This document shows positions 13,068 to 51,869 of a stretch of 64,000 bases of DNA, in pieces. The notes under the pieces were generated by a model. The model was not told the origin of the DNA. It saw only the letters and a program-made list of their open reading frames with translations, and did not search any database. The stretch spans positions 49,621-113,620 of the forward strand of contig JAUSHI010000007.1 in the NCBI GenBank assembly GCA_030648055.1, in the 5' to 3' direction. The position numbers were made by a program, and so were the translations under genes. Source of the DNA: a bacterium. GTDB lineage: Bacteria > Patescibacteriota > Minisyncoccia > Sungbacterales > SURF-37. How positions within the stretch are numbered: position 1 is the stretch's first letter; each line of letters opens with the position of its first letter.

Positions 13068-13690
13068 TCGCTTTGGGGAGAGTATTAAAGGAAGCGCTTA
13101 AGCGCCACTTTTTATTTTGTAGCCGCGCCTTCGCAATGAAAAATTTTTGCTACTGCTCCGCTAATATATAATATGAAATAAAAAAGCCCTGATTCATTCG
13201 GGGTTTTGTGTTGCGCGCCCTGCGCATTTTTCCGCTTTAGCACTATAAGAAAACAGTGGTTCAAGAAAACGAACAATAAGCCGCTCACCAATCTCACGAG
13301 TATTATTGTTGTGTGAATATTCGAGAGAACACAAGCATGCGACAAGCACAAACCACTTTTACATGGATTAATTTTCCCAAAACATACCGCAAATAAGCGC
13401 GCCCACATCCGGCGCGAAGCGACCCGTAATCGCAATCGCTCCTCTCACCCGTCTCTTAAAGACACCGGTCTATCTCTCTGAAAAAACCAGACAATCGTCC
13501 GGATATGGCCTGGTTGGTATAAATAGGGCTAATGATACTGTCAATTTTGACAACCGCATTGCGCCTTGCTACGAATGGTTTATCACAATTCATAGAACAT
13601 GAAGCTCATAGCATAAAAAACACTGCGTAAAACATCTAACACAGAACAGGCGCGTGCTCCATGTTTTATGTTATATGTGTTATAACACTT

Positions 13691-15211
13691 ATGGTCAAAC
13701 TCTCCTCCGCGCAACTTACCGGACTCGACGCAACAATCATAACAGTAGAAGTGGACCTATCGCCCGGCCTTCACATTTTTTCAATTGTCGGCCTCGCCGA
13801 TAAAGAAATTCAGGAGTCCCGCGAACGGATAGGCGCGGCGGTAAAAAATATCGGCGGCAGAGCTCCGCACAAAAAAGCCCAGCGTATAATAGTCAACCTC
13901 GCCCCGGCCGACATAAAAAAAGAAGGGCCGGCTTTTGATTTGCCCATTGCTCTTGGTTTTTTGCTTGCCTCGGAACAGACAAGATTCAATCCGGAAGGAA
14001 AACTGTTTTTAGGCGAGCTCGGACTAGACGGTTCGGTAAAACCGATACGCGGGGCGCTCGCTTCAACAATTGAGGCAAAAAAACATTCTTTCAAAACTAT
14101 TTATGTTCCAAAAGGCAACGGAAACGAGGCCGCCCTTGTCGGAGGCATTGAGGTCAAAGAAGTGGGAAGCATACTGGAACTTCTTGATGATCTGGAAAAT
14201 AAAAAAGAAATTGCCGCGCACATCCGTGAAGAAAAAGCAGGAGAAGATATTATTTTTTCTAATTTTTCATTAATCAAGGGACAGGAACACGCCAAACGCG
14301 CTCTGGAAATCGCCGCCGCTGGGGGGCATAATCTTCTAATGCAGGGGCCTCCGGGCACGGGCAAAACCATTCTTGCCCGTTCACTTCCTGAAATCCTTCC
14401 AAAACTCTCATACGAAGAAACAATTGAAGTTACAAAAATTTACAGCGCTACCGGATTTTTAAAAGCAAGCGATGAGGCTGTCATTAAACGGCCCTTCCGT
14501 TCGCCTCACCACACCGCCTCCCCCGTTTCAATCGCCGGAGGAGGAAACCCGATGCGCCCGGGAGAAATAACGCTTGCCCATCGCGGAGTTCTTTTTCTTG
14601 ATGAACTGCCGGAATTCCAATCAAACGTGCTTGAGGCTCTTCGCGAACCTCTAGAAGAGCGCGTCATCACCGTATCGCGCGCGCAAGGAACCGTCGCGTT
14701 TCCGGCACATATAATTTTAGTCGGGGCAATGAACCCGTGCCCGTGCGGACACTTGAATAATCCTCCCCATGAATGCGTCTGCACGCCAGGCCAAATTACA
14801 AAATACCAAAGAAAAATATCAGGCCCGTTGCTCGACCGCATTGACTTATTTATTGAAGTGCCGCCGGTAGAAATCAAAAAAATTGATGAAGAACACCAGG
14901 AAACGAACGAGGCGGAAGCGGCCCGGCAAAGAGTGAAAAAGGCGCGGGGAATCCAGCGCGAACGATTTTTAAACGAAAAACTTCTTACCAACTCCGAAAT
15001 GGGCCTTCGCGAAATTAAAAAATACTGCCCGCTTAATGAAGAAACTAAAAAAATCCTGCGCCAGGCCTACGAACAATACGCCATGTCGGTGCGCTCATAT
15101 TACCGAACCATCAAAACCGCGCGCACCATCGCCGATCTCGCCGAATCTCAAAACATAGAAACACCCCATCTCCTTGAAGCCCTTCAGTATCGAGCCAGAG
15201 TAGAAATTTAA
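13691..15211 (+). CDS. comM: Mg-chelatase-like AAA+ ATPase, YifB/ComM family
   Basis: Start chosen at ATG 13691 (MVKLSSAQLTGLDA). Walker A GPPGTGKT, Walker B VLFLDELPEF, ChlI-like core. Confidence 0.85.
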   Translation: MVKLSSAQLTGLDATIITVEVDLSPGLHIFSIVGLADKEIQESRERIGAAVKNIGGRAPHKKAQRIIVNLAPADIKKEGPAFDLPIALGFLLASEQTRFNPEGKLFLGELGLDGSVKPIRGALASTIEAKKHSFKTIYVPKGNGNEAALVGGIEVKEVGSILELLDDLENKKEIAAHIREEKAGEDIIFSNFSLIKGQEHAKRALEIAAAGGHNLLMQGPPGTGKTILARSLPEILPKLSYEETIEVTKIYSATGFLKASDEAVIKRPFRSPHHTASPVSIAGGGNPMRPGEITLAHRGVLFLDELPEFQSNVLEALREPLEERVITVSRAQGTVAFPAHIILVGAMNPCPCGHLNNPPHECVCTPGQITKYQRKISGPLLDRIDLFIEVPPVEIKKIDEEHQETNEAEAARQRVKKARGIQRERFLNEKLLTNSEMGLREIKKYCPLNEETKKILRQAYEQYAMSVRSYYRTIKTARTIADLAESQNIETPHLLEALQYRARVEI

Positions 15212-15295: not shown

Positions 15296-15388
15296 ATGGC
15301 ATTTAGAGCCTACCTCGCCGAATCCCAAAACATAGAAACGCCTCATCTTTTGGAGGCGCTGCAATATCGGGCAAAGGTTGAGATATAA
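15296..15388 (+). pseudogene. Displaced, diverged duplicate of the comM 3' end
   Basis: Encodes MAFRAYLAESQNIETPHLLEALQYRAKVEI*, versus the true C-terminus ..IADLAESQNIETPHLLEALQYRARVEI*. A 26-nt near-identical core occurs at 15137-15162 and 15314-15339. Confidence 0.7.
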
Positions 15389-17677: not shown

Positions 17678-19648
17678 ATGGACTCCATCCTGGAAGGCTT
17701 AAACAACAAACAGCTTGAAGCGGTAACGGCCGTAGAAGGACCGGTATTGATAATTGCCGGGGCCGGCTCCGGAAAAACAAAGGCCCTCACGCACCGGGTG
17801 GCCCATTTAATATCACGCGGGATAAACCCATCATCAATTCTCGCGGTCACCTTCACCAATAAAGCGGCGGATGAGATGAAGACAAGAATCGCCGACCTCT
17901 TAAAAAAACACACTGCCAAAGAATCTCCAAAACTATTCCAAAAAGGAACGGCATCGCCTTTCGTCGGGACTTTTCACTCTCTTTGCGTATCAATCCTCCG
18001 TGAAGAATGCTCCAAAATAAAATTTCAAAGAAATTTCTCAATTTTTGATGAGGATGATTCGCTTTCACTCTTAAAAGAAATCATAAAAGAATTTAACATC
18101 TCTACCAAACAATACCCGCCGGGCATGGTCAGACACACGATCTCTAACCTAAAAAATGAACTAATAAGCGACGAAGAATATTCGGTCACGGCCGGAGAAG
18201 AAATTTTCTCAAAAAATGTTTCAAAAGTTTATGCCGAGTATCAGACGCGCCTGAAAAAAGCCAACGCTTTTGACTTTGATGATTTAATAACAAGCGTGGT
18301 GCGTATCTTCAAAGAAAATCCGGATGTCCTAAAAAAATACCAAGAACGCTTCTCCTACATCCACGTGGACGAATTTCAAGATACCAATATGCCCCAATAT
18401 CTTCTGGTCAGCCTTCTTACCAAATCGCGAGGAAACATCTTTGTTATCGGAGACGACGCGCAATCAATTTATTCATGGCGCGGAGCCGACATGCGAAACA
18501 TTTATAACTTTGAAAAAGAATGGCCTAACACCAAAGTCATACTTTTGGAACAAAATTACCGCTCAACCCAGACGATTTTGGGCGCGGCGAATGATTTAAT
18601 CACCAACAACCCCAGCCAAAAAAAGAAAAATCTATGGACGGAAAACACGGCCGGAGAACCGATAACCCTGATTTCAACCGAAAGCGAGCGGCATGAAGCA
18701 GGGCTAATCGCTGAAGAAATAATTCACTCAATTGAAAATGAAAAGCGCAAACCAAACGACTTTGCCGTACTGTATCGCACCAACGCTCAATCGCGATCAT
18801 TGGAAGAAGCACTACTTGATTCCTCCCTACCCTATGTCATCATCGGCGGCATTAAATTTTTCCAAAGAAGAGAAGTCAAAGACATCGTCGCTTATCTAAG
18901 ATTTCTGCAAAATCCTTCGGATAGCATCAGTTTAAAAAGAATAATAAACCTTCCTCCGCGCGGCATCGGGAGGGTTGCTTTCTTAAATTACATCGGGGGA
19001 GTAAGCGGAAAAAACGGAAGGAAAGAAAAAATAATTTTAGAAAAATTTGAAAGCCTCGTTGAAAAATTGCGCGAAGAACTGGAAAAAAATAATCTCTCAC
19101 AATTCATAAAAACATTAATAAAAAAAATAAATTACCGCGAGTATCTTGATGACGGATCTAATGAGGCCGAGATGCGCTGGGAAAATGTTCAAGAACTTGT
19201 AAGTTTAGCCAAACGCTTTGACAATGTCCCAACAAAAGAGGGGCTCGTGGAACTTCTAAGCGATATCGCGCTTGTGTCTTACGACGACGCGGACAAAACA
19301 GGCCCGAAAGAAAAAATATCACTGATGACCCTGCACGCGGCAAAAGGCCTTGAATTTCCGGTTGTTTTTATCGCCGGACTTGAAGAGGGTATTTTTCCCC
19401 ATTCCAAATCACTTTTAGAGCCCTCCTCACTTGAAGAAGAACGGCGCCTTTGCTATGTGGGAATCACCAGAGCCAAAGAAAAACTTTATCTTTTATGGGC
19501 AGGAAGAAGAACAATCTTCGGCGAAATACAGGCTAATATTCCTTCACGCTTCATAAAAGAAATACCGGAAAAATATCTGGAGGTTTCTGAAACAAGAAAC
19601 ACGGAACAAGGCGGCGGAGAATACGAAGACGAATCTCTTATTTTTTAA
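17678..19648 (+). CDS. pcrA: ATP-dependent DNA helicase, PcrA/UvrD family
   Basis: Walker A AGAGSGKT. Helicase motifs TFTNKAADEM, VDEFQDTN, QNYRST and VGITRAK. Confidence 0.9.
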   Translation: MDSILEGLNNKQLEAVTAVEGPVLIIAGAGSGKTKALTHRVAHLISRGINPSSILAVTFTNKAADEMKTRIADLLKKHTAKESPKLFQKGTASPFVGTFHSLCVSILREECSKIKFQRNFSIFDEDDSLSLLKEIIKEFNISTKQYPPGMVRHTISNLKNELISDEEYSVTAGEEIFSKNVSKVYAEYQTRLKKANAFDFDDLITSVVRIFKENPDVLKKYQERFSYIHVDEFQDTNMPQYLLVSLLTKSRGNIFVIGDDAQSIYSWRGADMRNIYNFEKEWPNTKVILLEQNYRSTQTILGAANDLITNNPSQKKKNLWTENTAGEPITLISTESERHEAGLIAEEIIHSIENEKRKPNDFAVLYRTNAQSRSLEEALLDSSLPYVIIGGIKFFQRREVKDIVAYLRFLQNPSDSISLKRIINLPPRGIGRVAFLNYIGGVSGKNGRKEKIILEKFESLVEKLREELEKNNLSQFIKTLIKKINYREYLDDGSNEAEMRWENVQELVSLAKRFDNVPTKEGLVELLSDIALVSYDDADKTGPKEKISLMTLHAAKGLEFPVVFIAGLEEGIFPHSKSLLEPSSLEEERRLCYVGITRAKEKLYLLWAGRRTIFGEIQANIPSRFIKEIPEKYLEVSETRNTEQGGGEYEDESLIF

Positions 19649-19650
19649 TT

Positions 19651-19760: not shown

Positions 19761-20546
19761 ATGAAGCCAAACAAACTTCTCGGACAACATTTTTTAAAAA
19801 ACAAAAAGGTGATTGAAATAATGATAAGGGCCGCAAAAAACGAGCCTGCTGTTGAGTATGTGCTTGAAATCGGACCGGGCCACGGAGTCCTCACGCGAGC
19901 CCTCGCTGAAAAGTTTAAGCATGTTATCGCCATAGAAAAAGATGCATGGCTTGCCGGAGAGTTGGCAAAAAAATTAAACACTGAAAAAATAACAAATTGC
20001 AAAATTATCGCTGGCGATATATTAAAAATAAATTTCCAAAAACTTCTTGGCAAGGCTCCATATGCGGTAATCGCAAATATCCCTTATTACCTTACCGGCC
20101 GCCTTATTCGCCTGCTCTTAGAAACAAAACATAGGCCCTCCTACATAATTTTAATGGTGCAAAAAGAAGTCGCCGAACGAATTACCGCTGGTCCGCCGGA
20201 AATGAATATGCTCGCCCTGTCGGTACAGGCTTTCGGAAAGCCGCGGATTATGGAACACGTTTCAAAAAAAGAATTTTCTCCGCCGCCGCAGGTTGATTCG
20301 GCCATAATAAAAATTTCGGGAATTTCTGAAAAATTTTTTGTTAAAAATAAAATTTCCGAAAAAGAGTTTTTCGCCATAATACGCGCCACCTTTTCTCAAA
20401 AAAGAAAGCGCCTCGCCAATACGCTTGCGAAATTCTACGGAGACAAAAAAATCGCCGAAGAAAAAATAAAAAAAACGGGCCTCTCTAAAAACGCCCGCCC
20501 GCAAGAGCTTACGCTCAAAAAATGGCTTAAACTCTCTGATAAGTAA
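19761..20546 (+). CDS. rsmA: 16S rRNA (adenine1518/1519-N6)-dimethyltransferase
   Basis: LGQHFL, SAM motif EIGPGHGVLT and ANIPYY. Confidence 0.9.
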   Translation: MKPNKLLGQHFLKNKKVIEIMIRAAKNEPAVEYVLEIGPGHGVLTRALAEKFKHVIAIEKDAWLAGELAKKLNTEKITNCKIIAGDILKINFQKLLGKAPYAVIANIPYYLTGRLIRLLLETKHRPSYIILMVQKEVAERITAGPPEMNMLALSVQAFGKPRIMEHVSKKEFSPPPQVDSAIIKISGISEKFFVKNKISEKEFFAIIRATFSQKRKRLANTLAKFYGDKKIAEEKIKKTGLSKNARPQELTLKKWLKLSDK

Positions 20547-20553
20547 GGCGAAA

Positions 20554-21762
20554 TTACCCACAACCGCATACTTCCGTCATGGGATCCCAAATCACACCCT
20601 GATATCCAGCATCATAACAAGAATTAATACACCCCAACGTATCTAATCCTGAGCAATTAGTTACAACGTAACAGCAGGTTTTCCCGGCAAGATTCACTCC
20701 GGGTGTTTTTGGATTTCCTCCTTCAACGTAACAGACCGGCATGACACCACAGTAAAAATAACAATACGCATTGGCATTAGGAATAGTAAAAATTTCTTTC
20801 AGCATTTTTATGTAATCTCTCAAATTCCACGAAAGTATAACCCCCCGCGGGGTGTCGTAAGAAAGAAGCCCAGCCGAAGAGTTAAAAAAGGCGCTCTTCC
20901 CGCTGTTTAATATGGCATTAATGTCATCATTATATCCTTGCGAGCGCATCAACTCCTGAAATTCCTTTAATGCTTCTTCGCGCGAAACCTTTTGTGCTGA
21001 AGGCGGAACCAAAATACGCCCTTCGTTTATTGCCTTTGCCACAGCCGCCTCTCTCAACTTAAACTCATACGGACGATCATAAAAATTCTCCGCATTCTTA
21101 AATGCTTCATACCGTTCTTTCGTAATATACCCCTTGTCAAAAAGATATTTCCTCACCACAAGATTAAACGCCCTCATTTCTTGCTCAGACTTAAATTCGT
21201 ACTTACTCTCCTGTTGCATCACCCCCTCGCTTATAAGAAAATCCTGAACCTGCCTAAGGCCCGCTATGTAATAATCTGGATAAAGGGTGTTAAAAACCTC
21301 CTCCTTGGTGAGAGTTTTGGTTAAGCTCGCAATGACTCTTTCAATATCATTGCCCACCAAAGCGCTATTTAACTCTTTCGCTTCAAAAAGCCCGGCGGGA
21401 TTTCCTTGACTTTCCTTAAGAAAATCTAAAACGTTTTGGGAAGTAAGTCGCGCTACGGCTGACGAAATTAACGGCTTCAAATCTTGAGTAATTACGCCGT
21501 AAAAATCCGTTGTTATGCCAAAAAGCGGCCGTTTTTGTGTTTCAAAAACACCAGTTAAGCCTATCTTCCCTGGGTCCTGAACACCTTCCGATGTGCTCCC
21601 TACTTTTTCTGGAACATTCAGAGCTTTTCCGCCCCCAGACACCGGGAGGCCGTCGCCGTTTAGTGTCGCAACTGGCCCGGAAGAACGAAAAAACAAAATA
21701 CCAAGAGCGACGCCGCCCACAATCAACACCACCGTAGCCAAAACAACAATACGCTTATCCAT
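20554..21762 (-). CDS. Membrane-anchored hypothetical protein with a cysteine-rich C-terminal module
   Basis: N-terminal TM IVVLATVVLIVGGVALGILFF. The last ~75 aa contain 11 Cys (..CYFYCGVMPVCY..KTCCYVVTNCSGLDTLGCINSCY..VCGCG). Confidence 0.55.
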   Translation of the reverse strand: MDKRIVVLATVVLIVGGVALGILFFRSSGPVATLNGDGLPVSGGGKALNVPEKVGSTSEGVQDPGKIGLTGVFETQKRPLFGITTDFYGVITQDLKPLISSAVARLTSQNVLDFLKESQGNPAGLFEAKELNSALVGNDIERVIASLTKTLTKEEVFNTLYPDYYIAGLRQVQDFLISEGVMQQESKYEFKSEQEMRAFNLVVRKYLFDKGYITKERYEAFKNAENFYDRPYEFKLREAAVAKAINEGRILVPPSAQKVSREEALKEFQELMRSQGYNDDINAILNSGKSAFFNSSAGLLSYDTPRGVILSWNLRDYIKMLKEIFTIPNANAYCYFYCGVMPVCYVEGGNPKTPGVNLAGKTCCYVVTNCSGLDTLGCINSCYDAGYQGVIWDPMTEVCGCG

Positions 21763-27906: not shown

Positions 27907-28025
27907 CCCCGTTAGAAGTAGGACGCGAGTGCACATTTCATTAGAGATTCTTCATGATTATAAAGTTGCCCATACTTGAGAATTTGTCTCTAACGAGAGT
28001 AAGCGTCCGCGACTTCTAAACGGGG
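27907..28025 (+). repeat. Hairpin element family A, copy A2
   Basis: Left arm CCCCGTTAGAAGTAGGACGCGAGTGC, right arm GTAAGCGTCCGCGACTTCTAAACGGGG. Contains a 21-codon ORF at 27954-28019. Confidence 0.75.
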
Positions 28026-28103: not shown

Positions 28104-28250
28104 TTAACCCAGCCCTTTATGCAGTAAAAATTACTTCAATGTCAATATGAAAAGCATATCAACATCAAAATTAAAATTAAATTCAGCCGGCTTAAAGGGT
28201 TGGGTGCTGAATTTTATAATTATTCGCTAACACTCATAAATAAAATTCGC

Positions 28251-29132
28251 ATGCCCACAACACACATAAACGAAGAAGAAATTTTAAAGCGTTATGAGTC
28301 TTTGCCCCAAGACCTTAAAGACGCAATGATGGGCATTTCCACGGCCGACGCAATTAGCGAAATAGGCCGTAAAACAAATCTAAATATAGAAAAGATGGGG
28401 GCGCTGGCTGAAGAAGTGGGGCTTATTATCCTGGGATTTATTCCATCAGCAAATTTTATTTCCGATATCAAAACCGTGCTTGATATAGATGCGGAAAAGG
28501 CGGCGGAAATCGCAAATGAAGTAAACCAGCACATATTTTTACCGATACGCGAATCATTGAAACGCCTGCATGGCGCCTCCTGGAGTGAGGGAATCACCAA
28601 GCCCCCGGTAAAATTTGAAGGACAAAAAGTTGCCGAATTTAAACCCGCGCCCCCCGTTCCGGAAATAAAACCTTCCGGTCCGGTAAGCGCACCCGAAGCA
28701 AAACCGCAACCACCAGCGCTACCCGCCCCGAAAGAACCGATGATAATAAGACCAATGGGTCTGCCCGCGCCGCTACCCAAAGAAGAAAGATTCGGCGCAA
28801 AAGAAATTACCATGCCGCCCGCGCTACTCCCAACCCCAACATTGCCACCCGCGCCAGCGCGAACTGTTCCTACGATTCCTCCCATTGCTCAAAAAATTAT
28901 AACTCCTGAAATAAGACCTCAAGAAATTAAACTTCCGCCATCAGCTTTACCAATTTCAGAAAAAGAACAGGAAATGCCGTTCTCTCCATTTTCTTACGCC
29001 ACGCCCAAACCCGCTTTCCCAGCACCTACGATTCCATCGGCCCCAAAACCGATTATTCCGCAGCAAAAAATATTTGTCCCCGCGCCCCAACACCAACCAA
29101 GTTCTGACCCCTATAAAGAGCCGCTTGAATAA
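28251..29132 (+). CDS. Hypothetical protein with a helical N-domain and a long proline-rich C-terminal half
   Basis: Start chosen at ATG 28251 (MPTTHINEEE). The C-terminal ~170 aa are rich in P/A/K. Confidence 0.5.
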   Translation: MPTTHINEEEILKRYESLPQDLKDAMMGISTADAISEIGRKTNLNIEKMGALAEEVGLIILGFIPSANFISDIKTVLDIDAEKAAEIANEVNQHIFLPIRESLKRLHGASWSEGITKPPVKFEGQKVAEFKPAPPVPEIKPSGPVSAPEAKPQPPALPAPKEPMIIRPMGLPAPLPKEERFGAKEITMPPALLPTPTLPPAPARTVPTIPPIAQKIITPEIRPQEIKLPPSALPISEKEQEMPFSPFSYATPKPAFPAPTIPSAPKPIIPQQKIFVPAPQHQPSSDPYKEPLE

Positions 29133-30582: not shown

Positions 30583-32403
30583 ATGACTTTTGGAGGATTT
30601 GGGGGAAAAGATACAACAGCAAAGGAAATTTTTCCGGTTTTCCCGGAAGAAATTTACCGTGCGGCGGAAGTAACGCTCAAAGATGTTATCGCCCCGGCGG
30701 CCCTTGAAATCAATCCAAGTTTCCTTCGGCTGGGCGAACGAGTAAGCCGTACATTGTTTGTTTTTTCATATCCGCGCTTTTTACATACCAACTGGTTTTC
30801 ACCGATTATTAATCTAGACAAGATTTTTGACATAGCAATTTTTATTCATCCGGTAGACACCGTAATAATTATGCGCGAGTTGAGAAAGCAGGTCGCCAGA
30901 GTGCAGTCTCAAATCTCGCTTCGCGAAGAAAAAGGGCTGGTGCGGGACCCGATGTTAGACACCGCTTACCGCGATCTTGAGTCCCTGCGAGACAGACTTC
31001 AACAAGCCCAGGAAAGATTGTTCAATGTCGGGCTTTATTTTACCCTCTACGGCGCCAACGAAAACGAGCTGGATAAAACCGAAAATGAAATACGATCCAT
31101 GATGGAATCAAAACTCGTTTATATAAAACCCGCGCTCTTCCAGCAAGAAGAAGGATTCAACTCCACCCTGCCCCTGAATACCGACCGCCTGCTCGTGCAC
31201 AATTATCTTAACTCCGGTCCGGTATCTTCAACTTTTCCATTTGTCTCTTTTGACCTCACCTCAAACAAAGGAATCCTCTACGGCATAAATAGACACAACA
31301 ACAGCTTGATCCTTTTTGACCGCTGGTCTCTTGAAAACTCCAACTCGGTAACATTTGCCGTCTCAGGTGCTGGTAAATCATACGCTACAAAACTGGAAAT
31401 CTTGCGCTCTCTTATGTTTGCGGCTGAAGTTATAGTTATTGACCCCGAAAGAGAATATAAACACCTCTCGGACACAATAGGTGGGGCTTATTTCAACATT
31501 TCGCTCACCTCACCCCACCACATAAATCCGTTTGACCTGCCCGTTCCGCGCGAAGACGAAGCGCCCTCCGACGTTCTTCGCTCAAATATCATAAATCTTG
31601 TCGGGCTTTTCCGAATAATGCTCGGCGGCTTAACCCCGACCGAAGACGCGGTTCTGGACCGGGCCATTACCGAAACTTATGCGGCGCGAGACATAACTTC
31701 CGAATCGGATTTTTCAAAAATTTCGCCGCCGACTCTTTCAGATTTAGCGCTCATACTTGCCAACACTGAAGGGGGAGACGAACTTGCGATAAAACTAAAA
31801 AAATACACCGAAGGAACGTGGTCGGGATTTCTAAATCAGCAGACCAATCTAAATGTACGCAACCGTTTAGTCGTCTTCAGCGTGAGAGACATGGAAGAAG
31901 AACTGCGACCAGTCGCGATGTATATAATTCTTCACTATATCTGGAATATCGTCCGCTCCGAATTAAAAAAACGGCTTCTAATAGTGGATGAGGCCTGGTG
32001 GTTGATGCGGCACGAAGACGGCGCCTCTTTTCTTTTTGGTATTGCCAAGCGCGCGCGCAAATATTATCTCGGGCTTTCAACCATCACCCAGGACGTATCC
32101 GACTTTTTAAGCTCACCCTACGGGAAACCAATCGTTACCAACTCTTCGGTACAACTTCTCCTAAAGCAGTCCCCGGCAACAATTAAAACTCTGGTAGACA
32201 CCTTTAATCTTACCGAGGAAGAAAAATTTTTGCTCCTTGAGTCTGGGGTGGGAGAGGGAATTTTCTTCGCGGGGCTTAAACACGTAGCCATCAAAATTAT
32301 CGCTTCGTACACTGAAGACCAGATTATAACTTCCGACCCGGCCCAGCTCTTGCAGATTCAGAAAGCCAAAGAAGAATTCCAAAAAACTGGCCAACTGACT
32401 TAA
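30583..32403 (+). CDS. virB4: VirB4/TrbE/PrgJ-like type IV secretion ATPase
   Basis: Walker A VSGAGKSY and Walker B LLIVDEAW. N-terminal CagE/TrbE-like region (RTLFVFSYPRFL). Also LSTITQD. Confidence 0.8.
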   Translation: MTFGGFGGKDTTAKEIFPVFPEEIYRAAEVTLKDVIAPAALEINPSFLRLGERVSRTLFVFSYPRFLHTNWFSPIINLDKIFDIAIFIHPVDTVIIMRELRKQVARVQSQISLREEKGLVRDPMLDTAYRDLESLRDRLQQAQERLFNVGLYFTLYGANENELDKTENEIRSMMESKLVYIKPALFQQEEGFNSTLPLNTDRLLVHNYLNSGPVSSTFPFVSFDLTSNKGILYGINRHNNSLILFDRWSLENSNSVTFAVSGAGKSYATKLEILRSLMFAAEVIVIDPEREYKHLSDTIGGAYFNISLTSPHHINPFDLPVPREDEAPSDVLRSNIINLVGLFRIMLGGLTPTEDAVLDRAITETYAARDITSESDFSKISPPTLSDLALILANTEGGDELAIKLKKYTEGTWSGFLNQQTNLNVRNRLVVFSVRDMEEELRPVAMYIILHYIWNIVRSELKKRLLIVDEAWWLMRHEDGASFLFGIAKRARKYYLGLSTITQDVSDFLSSPYGKPIVTNSSVQLLLKQSPATIKTLVDTFNLTEEEKFLLLESGVGEGIFFAGLKHVAIKIIASYTEDQIITSDPAQLLQIQKAKEEFQKTGQLT

Positions 32404-32497
32404 AAATTAATCCTATTAGAGATCCAAACGTTATACACTGCAATTAATATAAAATACACTATAAAAATCCGGATTGTTTATTATTCTTCACTAATAA

Positions 32498-33037
32498 ATG
32501 GAAATCTTTGATTTCCTATCTCTAACGGGATTAAATTTTACCCCAATGAACGGCATACAGGCACCAACAAATCAAAAATCTCCGGCGAACGATACCCCGT
32601 GGCAAAACGAAAAACTTGCGCGCGCGCCGAAGCAAGCGGAAGCAAAAACACCATCGCCTCAAACCAAAATTTCCGTTGCAATGGGCGGACTTCTTATCGC
32701 AACCGCCTTATTTTTTGACGGCGGACAGTTTGTTCTTGAAGCCTTAACCGGACTTACCGCCGTTCTTCTACCGCTTGGAATTGCTCTTAGTTGGGCAATT
32801 GACGCGATTGCTTGGCTAACTTTTTTCTTATGGTTTCACTCCCTCGGATTAGGTACAATAAAGAAAGGCGGACCCGGAGAAACCACCCTAAATCAGGCGC
32901 CGTTTGTTATCATCGCGTTTGCCCTGGGCATTGAAATAATACCTTTCGTAAACATGCTCCCGGCGTGGACCGCGGCTATCGTAATCGTAATAGTAAAAGA
33001 GCGGGTATTGGCGCTCGCACAACAAAAAAACAAATGA
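32498..33037 (+). CDS. Integral membrane protein (T4SS-locus associated)
   Basis: 179 aa with about 4 hydrophobic helices after a polar N-terminus. Its stop overlaps the next start (ATGA). Confidence 0.5.
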   Translation: MEIFDFLSLTGLNFTPMNGIQAPTNQKSPANDTPWQNEKLARAPKQAEAKTPSPQTKISVAMGGLLIATALFFDGGQFVLEALTGLTAVLLPLGIALSWAIDAIAWLTFFLWFHSLGLGTIKKGGPGETTLNQAPFVIIAFALGIEIIPFVNMLPAWTAAIVIVIVKERVLALAQQKNK

Positions 33038-34005
33038 AATTTTTCCTTTCACTTTTAGTATTAGGGGTTCTGCTTTTTGCATCAGGGGCCGCGGTTAAGG
33101 CGCAATTTGCCGAAAATCTTTCAATTGCTATTGATGTCGCGTCTCCTCAGCCCGGCCAGACCATTAACGCAAAAGCTTTACTTTCAACAAACAACCCGGC
33201 TCAAGCCACATTCCAATGGCTATTGAACGGAAAAGGTGTACCATCTGCTTCCGGCATGGGAAAAGATACTTTTACGTTTACCATGCCAACAGGAAGCCGC
33301 ACCGCCGTTGATGTCGTTGTCGTCACCTCCGATGGCACTCGCCTTGAGGCCACAAAAGCCATAACATTGGCCAAGGCAGTCATCGTCTGGTGGGCAGACA
33401 CATCTGTTCCAATCTGGTATCAAGGCAAAGCAATCTCAAGCACTGGCTCAACGGCGACACTATACGCGATACCCGGAACCGGATTCAATGAAAATCCATC
33501 AACTCTTTTTTACTTCTGGACAATTAACCTTGAAGCACACCCGGAGGTCTCGGGCGTCGGACGAAATAGTTTTGACTTGAAAGTTTCGCTGGCTGAAAAC
33601 GTAACGCATCAAATAAATGTTCGCATATCCAATGCCACCCAGACCATAACGCAGGAGGCCATGGTTTTGCTCCAAACAAAAACGCCGGAACTTATGGTCT
33701 ACCAGCTTACCCCGACCGGAGGGGTTGATTTTTCACAAATGCTTTCAATCTTTAATGGAAACTCGGGCGAAACATATGACTTTATCGCCGAACCTTTTTT
33801 CTTCCGTCCCGACCAGATTAAAGTGTTGAAATTTTCCTGGCAATTAAACGACAAAACTCTTGAGGGAGATTTTACAAAACCAAATATTTTAACTTTGGAA
33901 ACAACATCCGGCGGAACTTCGCAAAACACGGTTCAGGTGGATGCCAGCGGCTTAGGAACAAACACACAAGAATCTTCAACCTTTTTTACAGCTAACTTCC
34001 GTTAA
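33034..34005 (+). CDS. Secreted hypothetical protein, beta-rich
   Basis: Start chosen at ATG 33034. Signal peptide MKFFLSLLVLGVLLFASGAAVKA. Confidence 0.55.
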   Translation: MKFFLSLLVLGVLLFASGAAVKAQFAENLSIAIDVASPQPGQTINAKALLSTNNPAQATFQWLLNGKGVPSASGMGKDTFTFTMPTGSRTAVDVVVVTSDGTRLEATKAITLAKAVIVWWADTSVPIWYQGKAISSTGSTATLYAIPGTGFNENPSTLFYFWTINLEAHPEVSGVGRNSFDLKVSLAENVTHQINVRISNATQTITQEAMVLLQTKTPELMVYQLTPTGGVDFSQMLSIFNGNSGETYDFIAEPFFFRPDQIKVLKFSWQLNDKTLEGDFTKPNILTLETTSGGTSQNTVQVDASGLGTNTQESSTFFTANFR

Positions 34006-34018
34006 CAAACTTATGAAT

Positions 34019-34137
34019 CCCGTTAGAAACCGCGGTCGCAGTACGTAAAATAAATATCATCAAAATTATGAAGGAAAAAATTATAAACCATCAATATAAT
34101 AACCAGCAGGCGCTGACCGCGACCTGTTTCTAACGGG
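34019..34137 (+). repeat. Hairpin element family A, copy A3
   Basis: Left arm CCCGTTAGAAACCGCGGTCGCAGTAC, right arm ..GCTGACCGCGACCTGTTTCTAACGGG. Ends at the ATG of the pilin-like gene. Contains a 21-codon ORF at 34068-34133. Confidence 0.8.
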
Positions 34138-34545
34138 ATGAAATTCTTTCTTTTTTCCGTTGCCTTTATCGCCGTGTTAGTTCTTGCCCCTGCCGCAAGC
34201 CATGTATCTTTGGCTGAACCTAACCCCACGAGCATAGTTGTACCCACATCAATAACATCGGGAACCACCGGCGCAAAACCCACCACAGCAACAGGCTACC
34301 TTGATTATCTTTATACATGGATGCTGGGATTTGTGGGTATTGCCGCGCTTTTTGCTATAGTTTATGGCGGAGTGCTTTATATTTTCTCAGGGGCTATTGA
34401 GTCAACCGCTGAAGCGCGAAGGTGGATTACCAACGCCATTATAGGCCTCCTTATTGCCGGCGGCTCTTACGTTATTCTTCGCACCATAAACCCAGATCTG
34501 GTTAAAAAATTTGATGTGCAAACCATTATCCAAAAAAATAGATAA
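34138..34545 (+). CDS. VirB2/TrbC-like pilin candidate
   Basis: Signal peptide MKFFLFSVAFIAVLVLAPAASHVSLA followed by two hydrophobic helices (MLGFVGIAALFAIVYGGVLYIF and IIGLLIAGGSYVIL). Located in the T4SS locus. Confidence 0.5.
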   Translation: MKFFLFSVAFIAVLVLAPAASHVSLAEPNPTSIVVPTSITSGTTGAKPTTATGYLDYLYTWMLGFVGIAALFAIVYGGVLYIFSGAIESTAEARRWITNAIIGLLIAGGSYVILRTINPDLVKKFDVQTIIQKNR

Positions 34546-36343: not shown

Positions 36344-37075
36344 TTAACGGCCTTGCTGAAACCTTTTTTTAATTAAAATTTGCTCTACTATAGCAAGTAA
36401 ACTCATGGTTGTCCAGTAAAGCGGCAAGGCCGACGGAAGCGAAAAAGACCACACCGCGATCAAAATAGGGAGAAAATATTTAGTCTGAAACATTAATATT
36501 TTTGAAAGATCCGGCTCTTTACTACTCCCGCTTTGGGGTGTGGGCACGGAAAGTTGCGGAATGAACCGTGCTTGAAAAAATTGTGAAACGCCGGCAAGAA
36601 TCGCCAGTGGAATACTGCTCTTGGCTATATCAATAAAACCAAAAGCGATTAAATTAAGTGCGGCTGGGGCGGCGACAAAATAATAAAGAACTCCAAATTC
36701 ACCGGACTTCAACCCGACCCAAAACACCCTATAAAGAGCAATAAGAATCGGTAGCTGAATAAGAATGGGCAAACAACCCGAAAAGGGATTCATTTTGTGC
36801 TCGGCATAAAGTGCCATTATGCGCTTGGTTTGCTCTTCTTTGTTGCCCTTAAATTCTTCTTGTATTGCTTTTAATTTGGGCTGTATGACTCTAAGTGCGG
36901 CCTGACTTTTAAAAGCTTTAATTGTCGCGGGAAAAAGAACAAGACGCACAAAAAAAGTGAGGATAACTATAGATATCCCAATATCGTGTATGGGCAAAAA
37001 AGAGTAAATTAAAATAAGGCCGTTAAAAAGCGGCCTATACAACACCTCATTATATAAAAAATAGACAATGTTCAT
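36344..37075 (-). CDS. yidC: Membrane protein insertase YidC (short form)
   Basis: 243 aa. Contains MNPFSGCLPILIQLPILIALY, typical of YidC/Oxa1. Confidence 0.85.
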   Translation of the reverse strand: MNIVYFLYNEVLYRPLFNGLILIYSFLPIHDIGISIVILTFFVRLVLFPATIKAFKSQAALRVIQPKLKAIQEEFKGNKEEQTKRIMALYAEHKMNPFSGCLPILIQLPILIALYRVFWVGLKSGEFGVLYYFVAAPAALNLIAFGFIDIAKSSIPLAILAGVSQFFQARFIPQLSVPTPQSGSSKEPDLSKILMFQTKYFLPILIAVWSFSLPSALPLYWTTMSLLAIVEQILIKKRFQQGR

Positions 37076-37213
37076 AATGTTTAGAGATAGAAAGTCAAAA
37101 GTCTGCGTCTATTAACGTTAAAATAATAAATAGTCTTAGTTTTTATAATATAATTTATACTGCTTGCGACACATAACGCTTGGATCTCTAGCAGAACTCA
37201 TTGAATTTTAAAT

Positions 37214-37450
37214 CTAACGAAGCGGATCGTAGCCGCCCCGCGACAGGGGATTGCAGGAAAGAATTCTAAACAATGAAAACACAGAACCTTTACAGGGTCC
37301 ATATTGACGAACGGCCGCCACTGCGTATTCTGAACAGGAGGGATAAAAACGACACCTTCTAAAACTGCCGGGATAAAAATCCGAGTGACCTGGTGAAAAT
37401 GTTTTTTGATAAAAACGTATAAGTAGAATAATGAGTCTGGTCATGACCAT
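37214..37450 (-). CDS. yidD: Membrane protein insertion efficiency factor YidD
   Basis: LIRFYQKTFSP..CRFYPSCSEYA..GGYDP. Confidence 0.85.
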   Translation of the reverse strand: MVMTRLIILLIRFYQKTFSPGHSDFYPGSFRRCRFYPSCSEYAVAAVRQYGPCKGSVFSLFRILSCNPLSRGGYDPLR

Positions 37451-50601: not shown

Positions 50602-51723
50602 TTAGCGGCCAAGCAGGGCAGTGATTGCTATTTCAGCCTCAGGGAATGATTTAAATTGCGTTTTTAAAATTTGGCAGTTTTCTCTTGATTCAAAAGGCGC
50701 GAGCTTTTCCGCGTTTATTGGATTTTTTCCTGATGTCCTTAAAATTGCCTGTATCATGCCGTCTTCAATTTTTTGCCAGAGAAGGACGAGCGTTTCCGGC
50801 AGAGAAAAGTGTTCTTCAATATGGTCTATTACAAAGGGAATTGCTTCTTCGGGCGCGGTTTTGGTTTTGGCAAAATCGTCCTTAGTCAGCACGGACCATA
50901 AAATTCCTCTTTCTTGGTCCAGTCGCGAGCGCACCGAAGCGCGGCCCCAAATTTGGAGTAGGGGCAAGGGCTTAGTTTTCCATAAAATCCTCACGATATC
51001 ATCTTTTTTTGCCCCCCTTTGTACGAGCGAAGAGGCCGTTCTAAGAGTTGATGGTTTAGTGTGGCTGTTTTGGAAATTTTTTGTTTTATTTATCATACCG
51101 AATAGCAACGCGGTTGCCGTGTTTTCGTCCACAAGGGCGGGTGCGAGCGAAAGCAGAAGATCGGCAGTTATTTCAGATACGGAACTTTGTGTCATATCAG
51201 TTAAACTGATTTCCGCGTAAGGACCGTGGTTGGGGCTGGGGTCAATGGCGATTGTCTGGTTTTCATAAAACATTTCGGGAGATTCTTCAAAAGCTCGCCC
51301 CAAGTCTTCTAGGTTGTGGACCCCAAGCGTGATTATGGCGTCAAATTTTGATTTGCCCCGCCGAAAAGAGATGTCTTCTTTTTTTATTGGGTGCTCTTTC
51401 GGAGTCAAAATTATATTAAGTGCGCCTCCTTCATGTTCATAGCGTAGTTCTTTTACCGGAGAATTTTGATTATTAATGGCAATTATAAATTCGCATGGCG
51501 CGTTATCGCTGGAATTATTAAATGATTCTTTTGGCAGTACTTCGTATAAGTTTTTAGGGAATTCTCCCGAGAAAATTATTCCGGTTTCCTTTTTAAGTTT
51601 TGCAAGAACGCGCGAGAGTGCGAAAAAAGAAGCGCTTTCGTCAACGCCGGGTTTTTCCGGAAGAGCGATGCCGATAGAATGGCTTTTTTGTATTAGGTTT
51701 ATGGCTTGGTCTTGGGGTGACAT
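50602..51723 (-). CDS. DHH/DHHA1-like (NrnA-like) protein with degenerate catalytic motifs
   Basis: NrnA-like length and layout. DGD is replaced by GVDES, DHH by DPSPNH, and no GGGH is seen. Confidence 0.45.
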   Translation of the reverse strand: MSPQDQAINLIQKSHSIGIALPEKPGVDESASFFALSRVLAKLKKETGIIFSGEFPKNLYEVLPKESFNNSSDNAPCEFIIAINNQNSPVKELRYEHEGGALNIILTPKEHPIKKEDISFRRGKSKFDAIITLGVHNLEDLGRAFEESPEMFYENQTIAIDPSPNHGPYAEISLTDMTQSSVSEITADLLLSLAPALVDENTATALLFGMINKTKNFQNSHTKPSTLRTASSLVQRGAKKDDIVRILWKTKPLPLLQIWGRASVRSRLDQERGILWSVLTKDDFAKTKTAPEEAIPFVIDHIEEHFSLPETLVLLWQKIEDGMIQAILRTSGKNPINAEKLAPFESRENCQILKTQFKSFPEAEIAITALLGR

Positions 51724-51768
51724 GCGAATTTTGTCTATGAGTGTAGCGAATAGTTATAAAATTCAGCA

Positions 51769-51869
51769 CCCCGCCCTCTATGCTGTTTGACCACAGACAA
51801 TAAATAAATTTATTAAGAAAAGGGTGTATAAAAAGAGGCTAATGAATATTTGCGGCTTAGAGGGCGGGG
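51769..51869 (+). repeat. Hairpin element family J, copy J2
   Basis: CCCCGCCCTCTATGCTGTTT (51769-51788) ... CGGCTTAGAGGGCGGGG (to 51869). Confidence 0.8.

Follow-up and report, generated by a model that had tools for sequence, protein, structure and literature searches.

MITEs are defined by terminal inverted repeats, target-site duplication, small size and many copies, and in the Correia elements the duplicated target is TA. Among described systems, the closest to the one reported here are Correia/NEMIS of Neisseria and ERIC/IRU of enterobacteria, which are ~100-150 bp long, carry no transposase, make a short target duplication, occur in many dispersed copies, form a hairpin of their terminal inverted repeats in mRNA and affect the expression of neighbouring genes (PMC3184786, PMC10969869). 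Dispersed repeats that lie just 5' of ORFs and give them their initiation codon are also known, namely Borrelia IR-A and Neisseria REP2, the latter before pilC1 among other genes (PMC3184786). Additionally, the palindromic RPE MITEs of Rickettsia survive in expressed regions, where their sequence is compatible with translation and in frame (PMC10969869), and piggyBac has been paired with bacterial IS1380-like elements (PMC5718144). Termination-reinitiation coupling is itself established, in systems where a stop codon lies 4 nt before or overlaps the next AUG, and where that AUG is sequestered and is opened by ribosomes coming from upstream (PMC6728339, PMC12548453).

We report that a hairpin over the start codon of a T4SS pilin gene is very probably a copy of a MITE family that was inserted at the pilin start, where it would preserve, probably with some attenuation, the coupling that preceded it and is no dedicated switch. 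The family shares with Correia and ERIC the features just listed. However, the reviews cited do not describe those elements on start codons, whereas here the ~4 bp that are duplicated run from the second base of the start codon, the last base of the element completes that codon, and the element keeps one orientation with respect to the gene. REP2 lacks terminal inverted repeats and brings a whole ATG together with a promoter and an RBS; the present elements, in contrast, have terminal inverted repeats and a target duplication, bring no RBS and supply only the first base of the codon. RPE copies lie inside ORFs and add peptide segments, and some copies of our family (L005, L045) are likewise read in frame into the gene, but most sit at the ORF boundary, outside the protein. 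As for piggyBac and IS1380, the 4-bp duplications found here are of the T..A type (TGAA, TAAA, TTCA, TATA) and the ends read CCC(GT)TAGAAA, recalling the piggyBac end, CCCTAGAAAG flanked by TTAA. We treat this as a lead only; here an extra T/C or A/G stands between the duplication and CCC, and the duplicated sequence is variable in length (3-5 bp) and differs from TTAA. The coupling signals (TAA-N4-AUG, AUGA and an in-frame path) resemble those of coupled gene pairs, but they are known here from sequence, and they reside in a mobile repeat rather than having evolved in place. The literature searched, of which coverage was incomplete, describes no MITE that sits on start codons, rebuilds them and keeps a single orientation; nor did work on MITEs, or on leaderless or SD usage in CPR/Patescibacteria, describe the family.

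The window, by which we mean the whole 64-kb stretch of DNA that was analysed, holds the features collected in Table 1. By its best protein matches, the source organism falls near Candidatus Sungbacteria, within the Parcubacteria of the candidate phyla radiation (CPR). The ATG at 34138 opens a 135-aa ORF that matches T4SS_pilin in Pfam (PF18895, E 5.9e-7) and lies in a PrgI / TraC-like / VirB4-like gene cluster. Because its N terminus lines up with those of its orthologues, we regard 34138 as the true start, and not a codon further downstream, as the initial annotation had allowed for. This ATG stands immediately 3' of a terminal stem whose arms, CCCGTTAGAAAC at 34019-34030 and GTTTCTAACGGG at 34126-34137, are perfect complements by direct reading (12/12), as had been described. 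In the predicted fold, A-T at 34017-34018 pairs with A-T at 34138-34139, which brings the stem to 14 bp and places the A and the U of the pilin AUG within it; a second helix, GGUCGC/GCGACC, is predicted beyond. The minimum free energy of A3 is -39.3 kcal/mol, compared with -20.95 +/- 3.06 in 200 dinucleotide shuffles (z = -6.0; 0/200 as good).

A 21-codon uORF at 34068-34133, encoding MKEKIINHQYNNQQALTATCF, ends at the TAA at 34131-34133, which is followed by CGGG and then by the ATG; the uORF stop thus lies 4 nt before the pilin start, again in agreement with the first description. The reported lack of an SD also held, as no GGAGG-like motif lies ahead of the pilin ATG. However, only ~4-5 of the 48 long ORFs in the window have such a motif and its absence at the pilin gene is therefore not distinctive. 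Several window genes have a TATAAT-like box a few bases 5' of their ATG. An intrinsic terminator scan called none at A3, where a U-tract abutting the stem is absent. Rfam returned no match at the gathering threshold and only chance-level miRNA matches under permissive settings (E 0.086 or worse), and neither tRNA nor tmRNA was found in the window.

Table 1. Positions of the elements, repeats, reading frames and genes discussed, in window coordinates
Feature	Position	Strand	Basis or context
Element A1, 113 bp; same subfamily and orientation as A3; flanks TTAA / TGAA	19649..19761	+	Between PcrA/UvrD stop and ksgA ATG
Element A2, 119 bp; C..G ends; TAAA target duplication	27907..28025	-	Orientation opposite by the subterminal AGG side
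Relic-start ORF, MNPVRNRGRST then stop, 11 codons; crosses the left arm; opens at the original pilin ATG	34013..34048	+	
Left target-site duplication, TGAA; with A34013 forms the relic pilin start codon	34014..34017	+	
Element A3, 121-bp MITE, T-CCCGTTAGAA...TTCTAACGGG-A; final base is the A of the pilin ATG	34018..34138	+	Repeats, duplication, empty site in L120
Left terminal inverted repeat, TCCCGTTAGAAAC	34018..34030	+	Direct reading, fold
Promoter-like match, TAGAAA in left repeat, 16 nt, TAAAAT	34024..34051	+	Weak evidence
Left subterminal imperfect repeat half, GGTCGC; pairs with 34119-34124; 'CGCGGTC' side faces away from the gene	34034..34039	+	
Loop uORF, 21 codons; ends at the right-repeat TAA, 4 nt before the pilin ATG	34068..34133	+	
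Right subterminal imperfect repeat half, GCGACC, then CTG; gene-facing in nearly all family members	34119..34124	+	
Right terminal inverted repeat, GTTTCTAACGGGA; holds TAA 34131-34133 and gives the A of ATG	34126..34138	+	
T4SS_pilin (PF18895) gene; start codon occupied by A3	34138..34545	+	Pfam, orthologue alignment
Right target-site duplication, TGAA; bases 2-5 of the pilin ORF	34139..34142	+	

The decisive evidence for an insertion at this site comes from comparison with related genomes. In L120 (GCA_964505815.1), the closest relative with the same gene order, the VirB4-like protein is 90% identical and the site is empty: the junction there is cgcTAAacaacaATGAAATTATTC, that is stop-ACAACA-ATGAAA with 6 nt between stop and ATG, where the window has cgtTAAcaaacttATGAA-element-TGAAATTC. 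Set out by codon, L120 reads ...cgc TAA acaaca ATG AAA TTA TTC and the window ...cgt TAA caaactt ATGAA(T CCCG...CGGG A)TGAA ATT C, with the element in brackets, and subtracting A3 plus one TGAA from the window leaves an L120-like junction. The element is absent from the pilin junction of L122 as well. Judged by these junctions, the staggered target of A3 was TGAA, bases 2-5 of ATGAAA, which now stands on both sides of the element. The original pilin ATG persists as a relic at 34013, 7 nt past the stop of the upstream gene (34003-34005), and the working ATG at 34138 is rebuilt from the terminal A of A3 and the duplicated TG. The 12-bp perfect stem is nothing other than the two terminal inverted repeats of A3. 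ORFs of the MNPVR... type, like the one opening at the relic ATG of A3, are also seen in other family copies.

Two further copies lie in the window. The bare 12-mer is not enriched alone (9 matches with <=2 mismatches, compared with 6.1 +/- 2.4 expected in the window), and the real signal is in its paired copies, at 19650/19760, 27908/28024 and 34019/34137. The corresponding elements, A1, A2 and A3, all fold as long hairpins. A1 is 84-85% identical to A3 in both arms and follows the PcrA/UvrD helicase gene, of which the stop TAA is at 19646-19648. Its right end reads ...CTAACGGG-ATG-AA at ksgA/rsmA, with the ATG at 19761, in the same way as A3 ends at the pilin gene, and the window targets of A1 and A3 are both tightly coupled gene junctions. 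The flanks of A1 differ by one mismatch, and reconstruction of its target as ...TTTTT-TGAA-GCC points to an earlier TTG start that overlapped a TGA stop. L123 has no element at the orthologous PcrA-ksgA junction; it has an unrelated 64-nt hairpin spacer there, and the flanks have diverged, which makes this an absence only and not a clean empty site. A2 has its termini in common with A1 and A3 and differs from them in subterminal sequence. It lies in an intergenic region of ~600 nt, abutting no gene and distant from start codons, and this region is too diverged among relatives to be aligned for an empty site.

The three elements belong to a dispersed family. We scanned one genome per species for CCGTTAGAAR-N75-105-YTTCTAACGGG, specifying the arms only and leaving the flanks free, which returned at least 119 loci; 131 copies among the matches listed were analysed. 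Among these matches, hosts are mostly members of the candidate phyla radiation (Saccharibacteria, Paceibacterota/Parcubacteria, Nomurabacteria, Kaiserbacteria, Moranbacteria and others), and a few come from MAGs labelled Omnitrophota, Planctomycetota or Deltaproteobacteria. Interiors are largely unrelated across the family and contain only ORFs of up to ~40 codons. The common part is the termini alone (11-13 nt), with the consensus (T/C)CCCGTTAGAAR...YTTCTAACGGG(A/G), and element size is about 100-135 bp.

Every boundary register was tested for flanking direct repeats, and the best lay one base outside CCCG/CGGG. At this register, (T/C)CCCGTTAGAA...TTCTAACGGG(A/G), identical 4-nt flanks were found in 84 of the 131 copies listed, compared with 0-9 at most other registers; the score of the register one base inward, at length 2, comes only from the final two bases of this 4-nt repeat. 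Among the copies listed, the 4-mers duplicated are TGAA/TTCA (38), TAAA/TTTA (12) and TGGA/TCCA (9), with TGAG, TCAA, CATG and TATA also present. A3 is flanked by TGAA/TGAA and A2 by TAAA/TAAA. Duplication length is not strictly 4, as some flanks fit 3 or 5 nt. Relic and functional codons differ in several copies: a GTG or TTG relic on the left accompanies a functional ATG on the right in L034, L149 and A1 of the window, and a relic ATG on the left accompanies a functional GTG on the right in the C..G-ended copies L010, L025, L194 and L201. Thus, the terminal base is the element's and not the target's.

Compared with the defining features of MITEs, the family has terminal inverted repeats (13/13 perfect in A3), a target-site duplication at one boundary register only, small elements with no transposase gene inside, multiple dispersed copies (3 in the 64 kb of the window, in addition to the genome loci and at least 120 metagenome loci) and presence/absence at orthologous sites (L120, L122). 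A search of ~1.8 Mb of locus context for inverted arms spaced 0.2-5 kb revealed neither a cognate autonomous IS nor a transposase with these termini, and the long ORFs reading inward from an arm were only host genes, such as LemA and HtpX. A scan of 2.9 million viral contigs gave 0 element matches.

Other classes of palindromic repeat were considered and rejected. In the attC consensus, 5' RYYYAAC pairs with 3' GTTRRRY and target duplication is absent; an integron attC is rejected here on reversed polarity, with GTTAGAA 5' and TTCTAAC 3' on both strands, and on the presence of a target duplication. Polarity and target duplication also exclude an IS200/IS605-type palindrome. REP palindromes, described in part in PMC3184786, are GC-rich, have a conserved 5' tetranucleotide and lack target duplication, whereas A3 has an AT-rich interior, long terminal repeats and a target duplication, and a REP/REPIN identity was set aside.

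Many copies of the family coincide with gene starts. Among the 131 genome-scan copies listed, 76 lie on a start codon (ATG or GTG) that opens an ORF of 60 codons or more, a count that does not represent independent events, as the copies are phylogenetically related. T..A ends occur in 62 of these 76 copies but in 9 of the 55 elsewhere, and C..G ends in 13 copies at start codons and 41 elsewhere, again among the copies listed. Where the left subterminal motif of A1 and A3 is shared, the gene is at the same end in 29 of 31 copies. An independent scan of metagenome contigs for the A1/A3 subfamily, also with free flanks, returned at least 120 loci and 114 unique copies, and among the latter, as listed, 113 have an ATG or GTG at the right end, 106 a long ORF downstream and 109 T..A ends. 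Ten downstream proteins taken at random are mutually unrelated; they include a glycosyltransferase, an RNase T-type exonuclease, T2SS-F, a CAP-domain protein, a PD-(D/E)XK nuclease, MurB and a bPH-domain protein, three belong to no family, and none of the ten genes has a link to pilins. These data show that the lineage of A1 and A3, with T..A ends, is almost confined to the start codons of mutually unrelated CPR genes, which it faces in a single orientation. Additionally, -10-like hexamers peak 6-8 nt before the relic ATG (26 of 122 copies, compared with ~2 per other position), and this peak suggests that the target genes may often be leaderless.

The initial annotation had proposed that the hairpin gates the pilin gene and that pilin supply would be the controlled step of the T4SS-like apparatus. 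Stated in full, the hairpin and the uORF would have evolved as a dedicated cis-regulatory RNA that gates the pilin and thereby T4SS-like assembly. The AUG paired in the stem, the highly significant fold, the uORF stop 4 nt 5' and a palindromic spacer of some kind ahead of the pilin gene in 3 of 5 related genomes are all in its favour. However, the reading is largely refuted, because the orthologous site is empty and the downstream genes are so varied, and we give it hardly any credence. The structure is an element with a target-site duplication and is lacking in L120 and L122, the same element occupies the start codon of ksgA and those of many other, unrelated genes, Rfam has no match and the lack of an SD is the rule in this genome. 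The idea of a gate survives in part: with the AUG paired in the stem, free initiation would plausibly be impeded as a side effect of the hairpin, but a dedicated pilin regulator is unsupported. A pilin or T4SS leader RNA was likewise rejected, since it is not conserved upstream of orthologues and the downstream genes (ksgA, glycosyltransferase, exonuclease, T2SS-F, MurB, nuclease) lack a common functional class. A leader-peptide attenuator was rejected as well, there being no conserved leader peptide or regulatory codons in 52 uORFs.

At the same pilin junction, L121 and L246 have palindromic spacers of ~100-125 nt that are unrelated in sequence, which also counts against a cis-regulatory RNA. 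Each begins at a relic ATGAA just past the upstream stop and has an ORF of 28 or 42 codons. We favour recurrent insertion of other hairpin elements at the pilin start as their origin, given that a hairpin spacer of unrelated sequence likewise occupies the PcrA-ksgA junction in L123. Alternatively, the pilin gene could benefit from having a structured spacer ahead of it. In our report, ALTERNATIVES heads the list in which these spacers appear together with the promoter-like match and RNase III processing.

The probable consequences of A3 for translation may be modelled from the layout of the junction. Before the insertion the pilin ATG stood 6-7 nt past the upstream stop, a spacing typical of translationally coupled genes. 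On a polycistronic mRNA, a hairpin of this stability (-39 kcal/mol), in which the AU of the AUG is paired, would block direct initiation in a genome without SD use, and pilin translation would then probably depend on ribosomes from upstream, by way of the relic ATG and the uORF. Ribosomes leaving the upstream gene would restart 7 nt on at the relic ATG and melt the left arm over 11 codons. The 21-codon loop uORF would take ribosomes through the right arm to the TAA of the repeat, with reinitiation 4 nt on at the AUG. Of the frames through the right repeat (TTCTAACGGGATGA), one stops at TAA-N4-AUG, another at the AUGA overlap, and the last continues in frame into the coding sequence; given these three outcomes, the frame of arrival would matter little. 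The net effect would be that the coupling in place before the insertion is preserved, probably with some attenuation.

The distribution of ORFs across the family gives moderate support to this coupling reading. On the gene-facing strand, 54 of 76 copies have an ORF with an ATG start that reads into the right arm; the opposite strand has 35 of 76, and shuffled interiors give 31.8 +/- 4.1 (max 42). Among these ORFs the frame that ends at TAA contributes 40 versus 13. Counted separately, uORFs that end at the repeat TAA, from an internal or a relic ATG, are found in 42 of 76 copies facing the gene and in 16 of 76 on the opposite strand, and in 15 copies an ORF from the relic ATG spans the whole element. 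Among the metagenome subfamily copies listed, 62 of 114 have a uORF that ends at the TAA and 46% are without one. No codon-position constraint was detected in 52 aligned uORFs, in which all three positions are equally variable, and the nucleotides of the repeat account for the one constant stretch, the C-terminal TATCF. A simulated relay of ORFs from the relic ATG to the gene start was completed in 77 of 122 copies and in 67 +/- 5 with shuffles, which is barely above, and we do not use it as evidence. Fold prediction also counts against the coupling reading, as the right arm still refolds locally when the left arm is removed.

The same figures bear on whether the element does anything at all. 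It might be a passive, neutral passenger, with the hairpin opened by ribosomes or helicases, pilin output unaffected and its position reflecting only where insertions are tolerated in a compact genome. The near-shuffle result of the relay simulation, the many copies that lack a uORF, the unconstrained peptide and the scarcity of intergenic space (coding fraction ~0.85) agree with such neutrality. However, C..G-ended relatives are tolerated off start codons, and uORFs are enriched on the gene-facing strand. Because 113 of the 114 subfamily copies listed are on start codons, in one orientation, random insertion followed by tolerance is hard to reconcile, on its own, with the data, and we judge the neutral account rather unlikely.

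Tentatively, and with confidence somewhat short of even, we suggest that the T..A lineage homes to CPR start codons, often those of leaderless genes, inserting the same way round each time between their first and second bases, and that it is adapted to live there. Its last base would regenerate the ATG (GTG in the C..G form), the stops in the repeat would hand ribosomes to the start, and the promoter or coupling context of the relic codon would drive translation inward.

An effect through transcription rather than coupling was also considered. TTAGAA in the left repeat could act as a -35 box with a -10 box ~17 nt on, making the element a mobile promoter; the loop-initiated transcript would then be without the left arm, and the hairpin would not form. 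A3 itself has TAGAAA, 16-17 nt and TAAAAT, and across the family a -10-like box at 15-19 nt is present in 13 of 76 gene-facing copies but 2 of 76 opposite (~20% vs 3%), with a positional excess 25-31 nt from the end (39 vs 11); Correia elements have been reported to carry promoters (PMC3184786). Yet such a box occurs in only ~20% of copies, A1 has no good example, the AT-rich interior makes matches of this kind cheap, -10-like hexamers are equally numerous in total on the two strands (311 vs 306) and the spacing of the -10 box to the uORF ATG is not clear. We regard a mobile promoter as unlikely.

RNA processing would offer another route to the same start codon. Correia elements are reported RNase III substrates, and the duplex here is long, nearly perfect and ends exactly at the AUG. 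Cleavage by RNase III would detach the pilin mRNA from that of the upstream genes, and its new 5' end would lie at the AUG with almost no leader, in a genome that appears to use leaderless starts. However, cleavage leaves the enrichment of uORFs at the repeat TAA unexplained, and we consider this account very unlikely.

The hairpin at the pilin locus should not be taken for a T4SS control element, and the pilin start at 34138 is correct. At ksgA the start was mis-set by automatic annotation of the element-bearing gene: the KsgA recorded for the source genome is 20 aa short, and look-ups of the exact protein found neither the window pilin nor the window KsgA on record.

If the homing proposed above is true, the transposition machinery would recognise translation or transcription starts, or a mobile element would have adapted to a start-codon 'safe harbour'; in the literature searched, neither such targeting nor safe-harbour adaptation was found described for bacterial MITEs. 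A start-codon MITE family spread across many CPR lineages would represent an unusual choice of target, or an unusual adaptation, by a bacterial transposable element. These insertions are also a natural experiment on translation in organisms where the SD is largely absent and leaderless mRNAs are apparently used, as after each one a start that had been leaderless or tightly coupled is internal, structured and SD-less, and the gene survives.

The pilin junction (the stop of the upstream gene to the T4SS_pilin start), which holds element copy A3 in the window, carries unrelated palindromic spacers in two related genomes. Both open at ATGAA directly after the upstream stop, and each contains a short ORF (28 or 42 codons), whose stop overlaps the pilin start in the case of L246. 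The arms of the L121 spacer are ATGAATAATGAATTA and TAATTCATTATTCAT, and its fold has a z of -4.5. Coordinates of these and the other features are listed in the table.

Repeats and small genes in the window and in loci from other genomes (L-numbers)
Feature	Location	Orientation or source	Remark
Palindromic spacer, pilin junction	L121 8015-8110	related genome	unrelated
Palindromic spacer, pilin junction	L246 4548-4668	related genome	unrelated
Tandem element pair	L017 7672-7896		single shared spacer TTCA
Tandem element pair	L174 12626-12869		single shared spacer TGGA
Second repeat family, copy 1	window 32395-32530	+	upstream of ORF 32498-33037
Second repeat family, copy 2	window 37065-37215	-	upstream of yidC-like gene starting at 37075
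Inverted pair, ~70 nt each	window 28183-28253 and 51721-51790	inverted	83-92% complementary
Direct repeat, 81 nt	window 15131-15211 and 15308-15388	direct	77% identical
Small gene, 23S_rRNA_IVP / bAvd domains	L124 1775-2146, L125 734-1105, L122 2899-3261

Family A also occurs in paired arrangements elsewhere. In each tandem pair one 4-5-nt spacer is common to both elements, which indicates that one element arrived first and the other then inserted into its duplicated target. At L100 (5056-5166), two inverted family-A arms lie on both sides of a sequence that reads as a tRNA gene (GGGCCCGTAGCTCATCTGGTAGAGCGC...); no matching target duplication was found around these arms, the flanks being TTTA and CGAG.

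Other repeats adjoin genes in the window. The two copies of the second family, ~135 nt long and 82% identical, contain a TATAAA-rich, promoter-like stretch, and the genes downstream of both face inward; the last bases of the + copy, TCTCTAACGGGAT, differ from the family-A terminus by one mismatch. Members of the inverted pair each lie directly upstream of a gene start, at 28253 (+) and 51723 (-). The direct repeat is the 3' end of ORF 13661-15211, stop included, duplicated ~100 nt downstream of that ORF. The small 23S_rRNA_IVP / bAvd gene separates PcrA from ksgA in one relative, and in another it is part of the T4SS-like cluster.

Public gene calls place the start of KsgA (19761-20546; P0121, P0131) 20 aa short, at 241 versus 261 aa, and the same 20-aa shortening recurs in a relative (L123, 2443 versus 2501). 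Apparently the true start lacks an RBS, and in the window genome it also sits behind the element. When all gene starts in the window were examined, SDs were missing from most genes, and a TATAAT-like box stood 7-9 nt before the ATG at several, for example 20554-21762 (-), 59900 and 43791. Together, these boxes and the missing SDs suggest that leaderless or SD-independent initiation is widespread in this genome.
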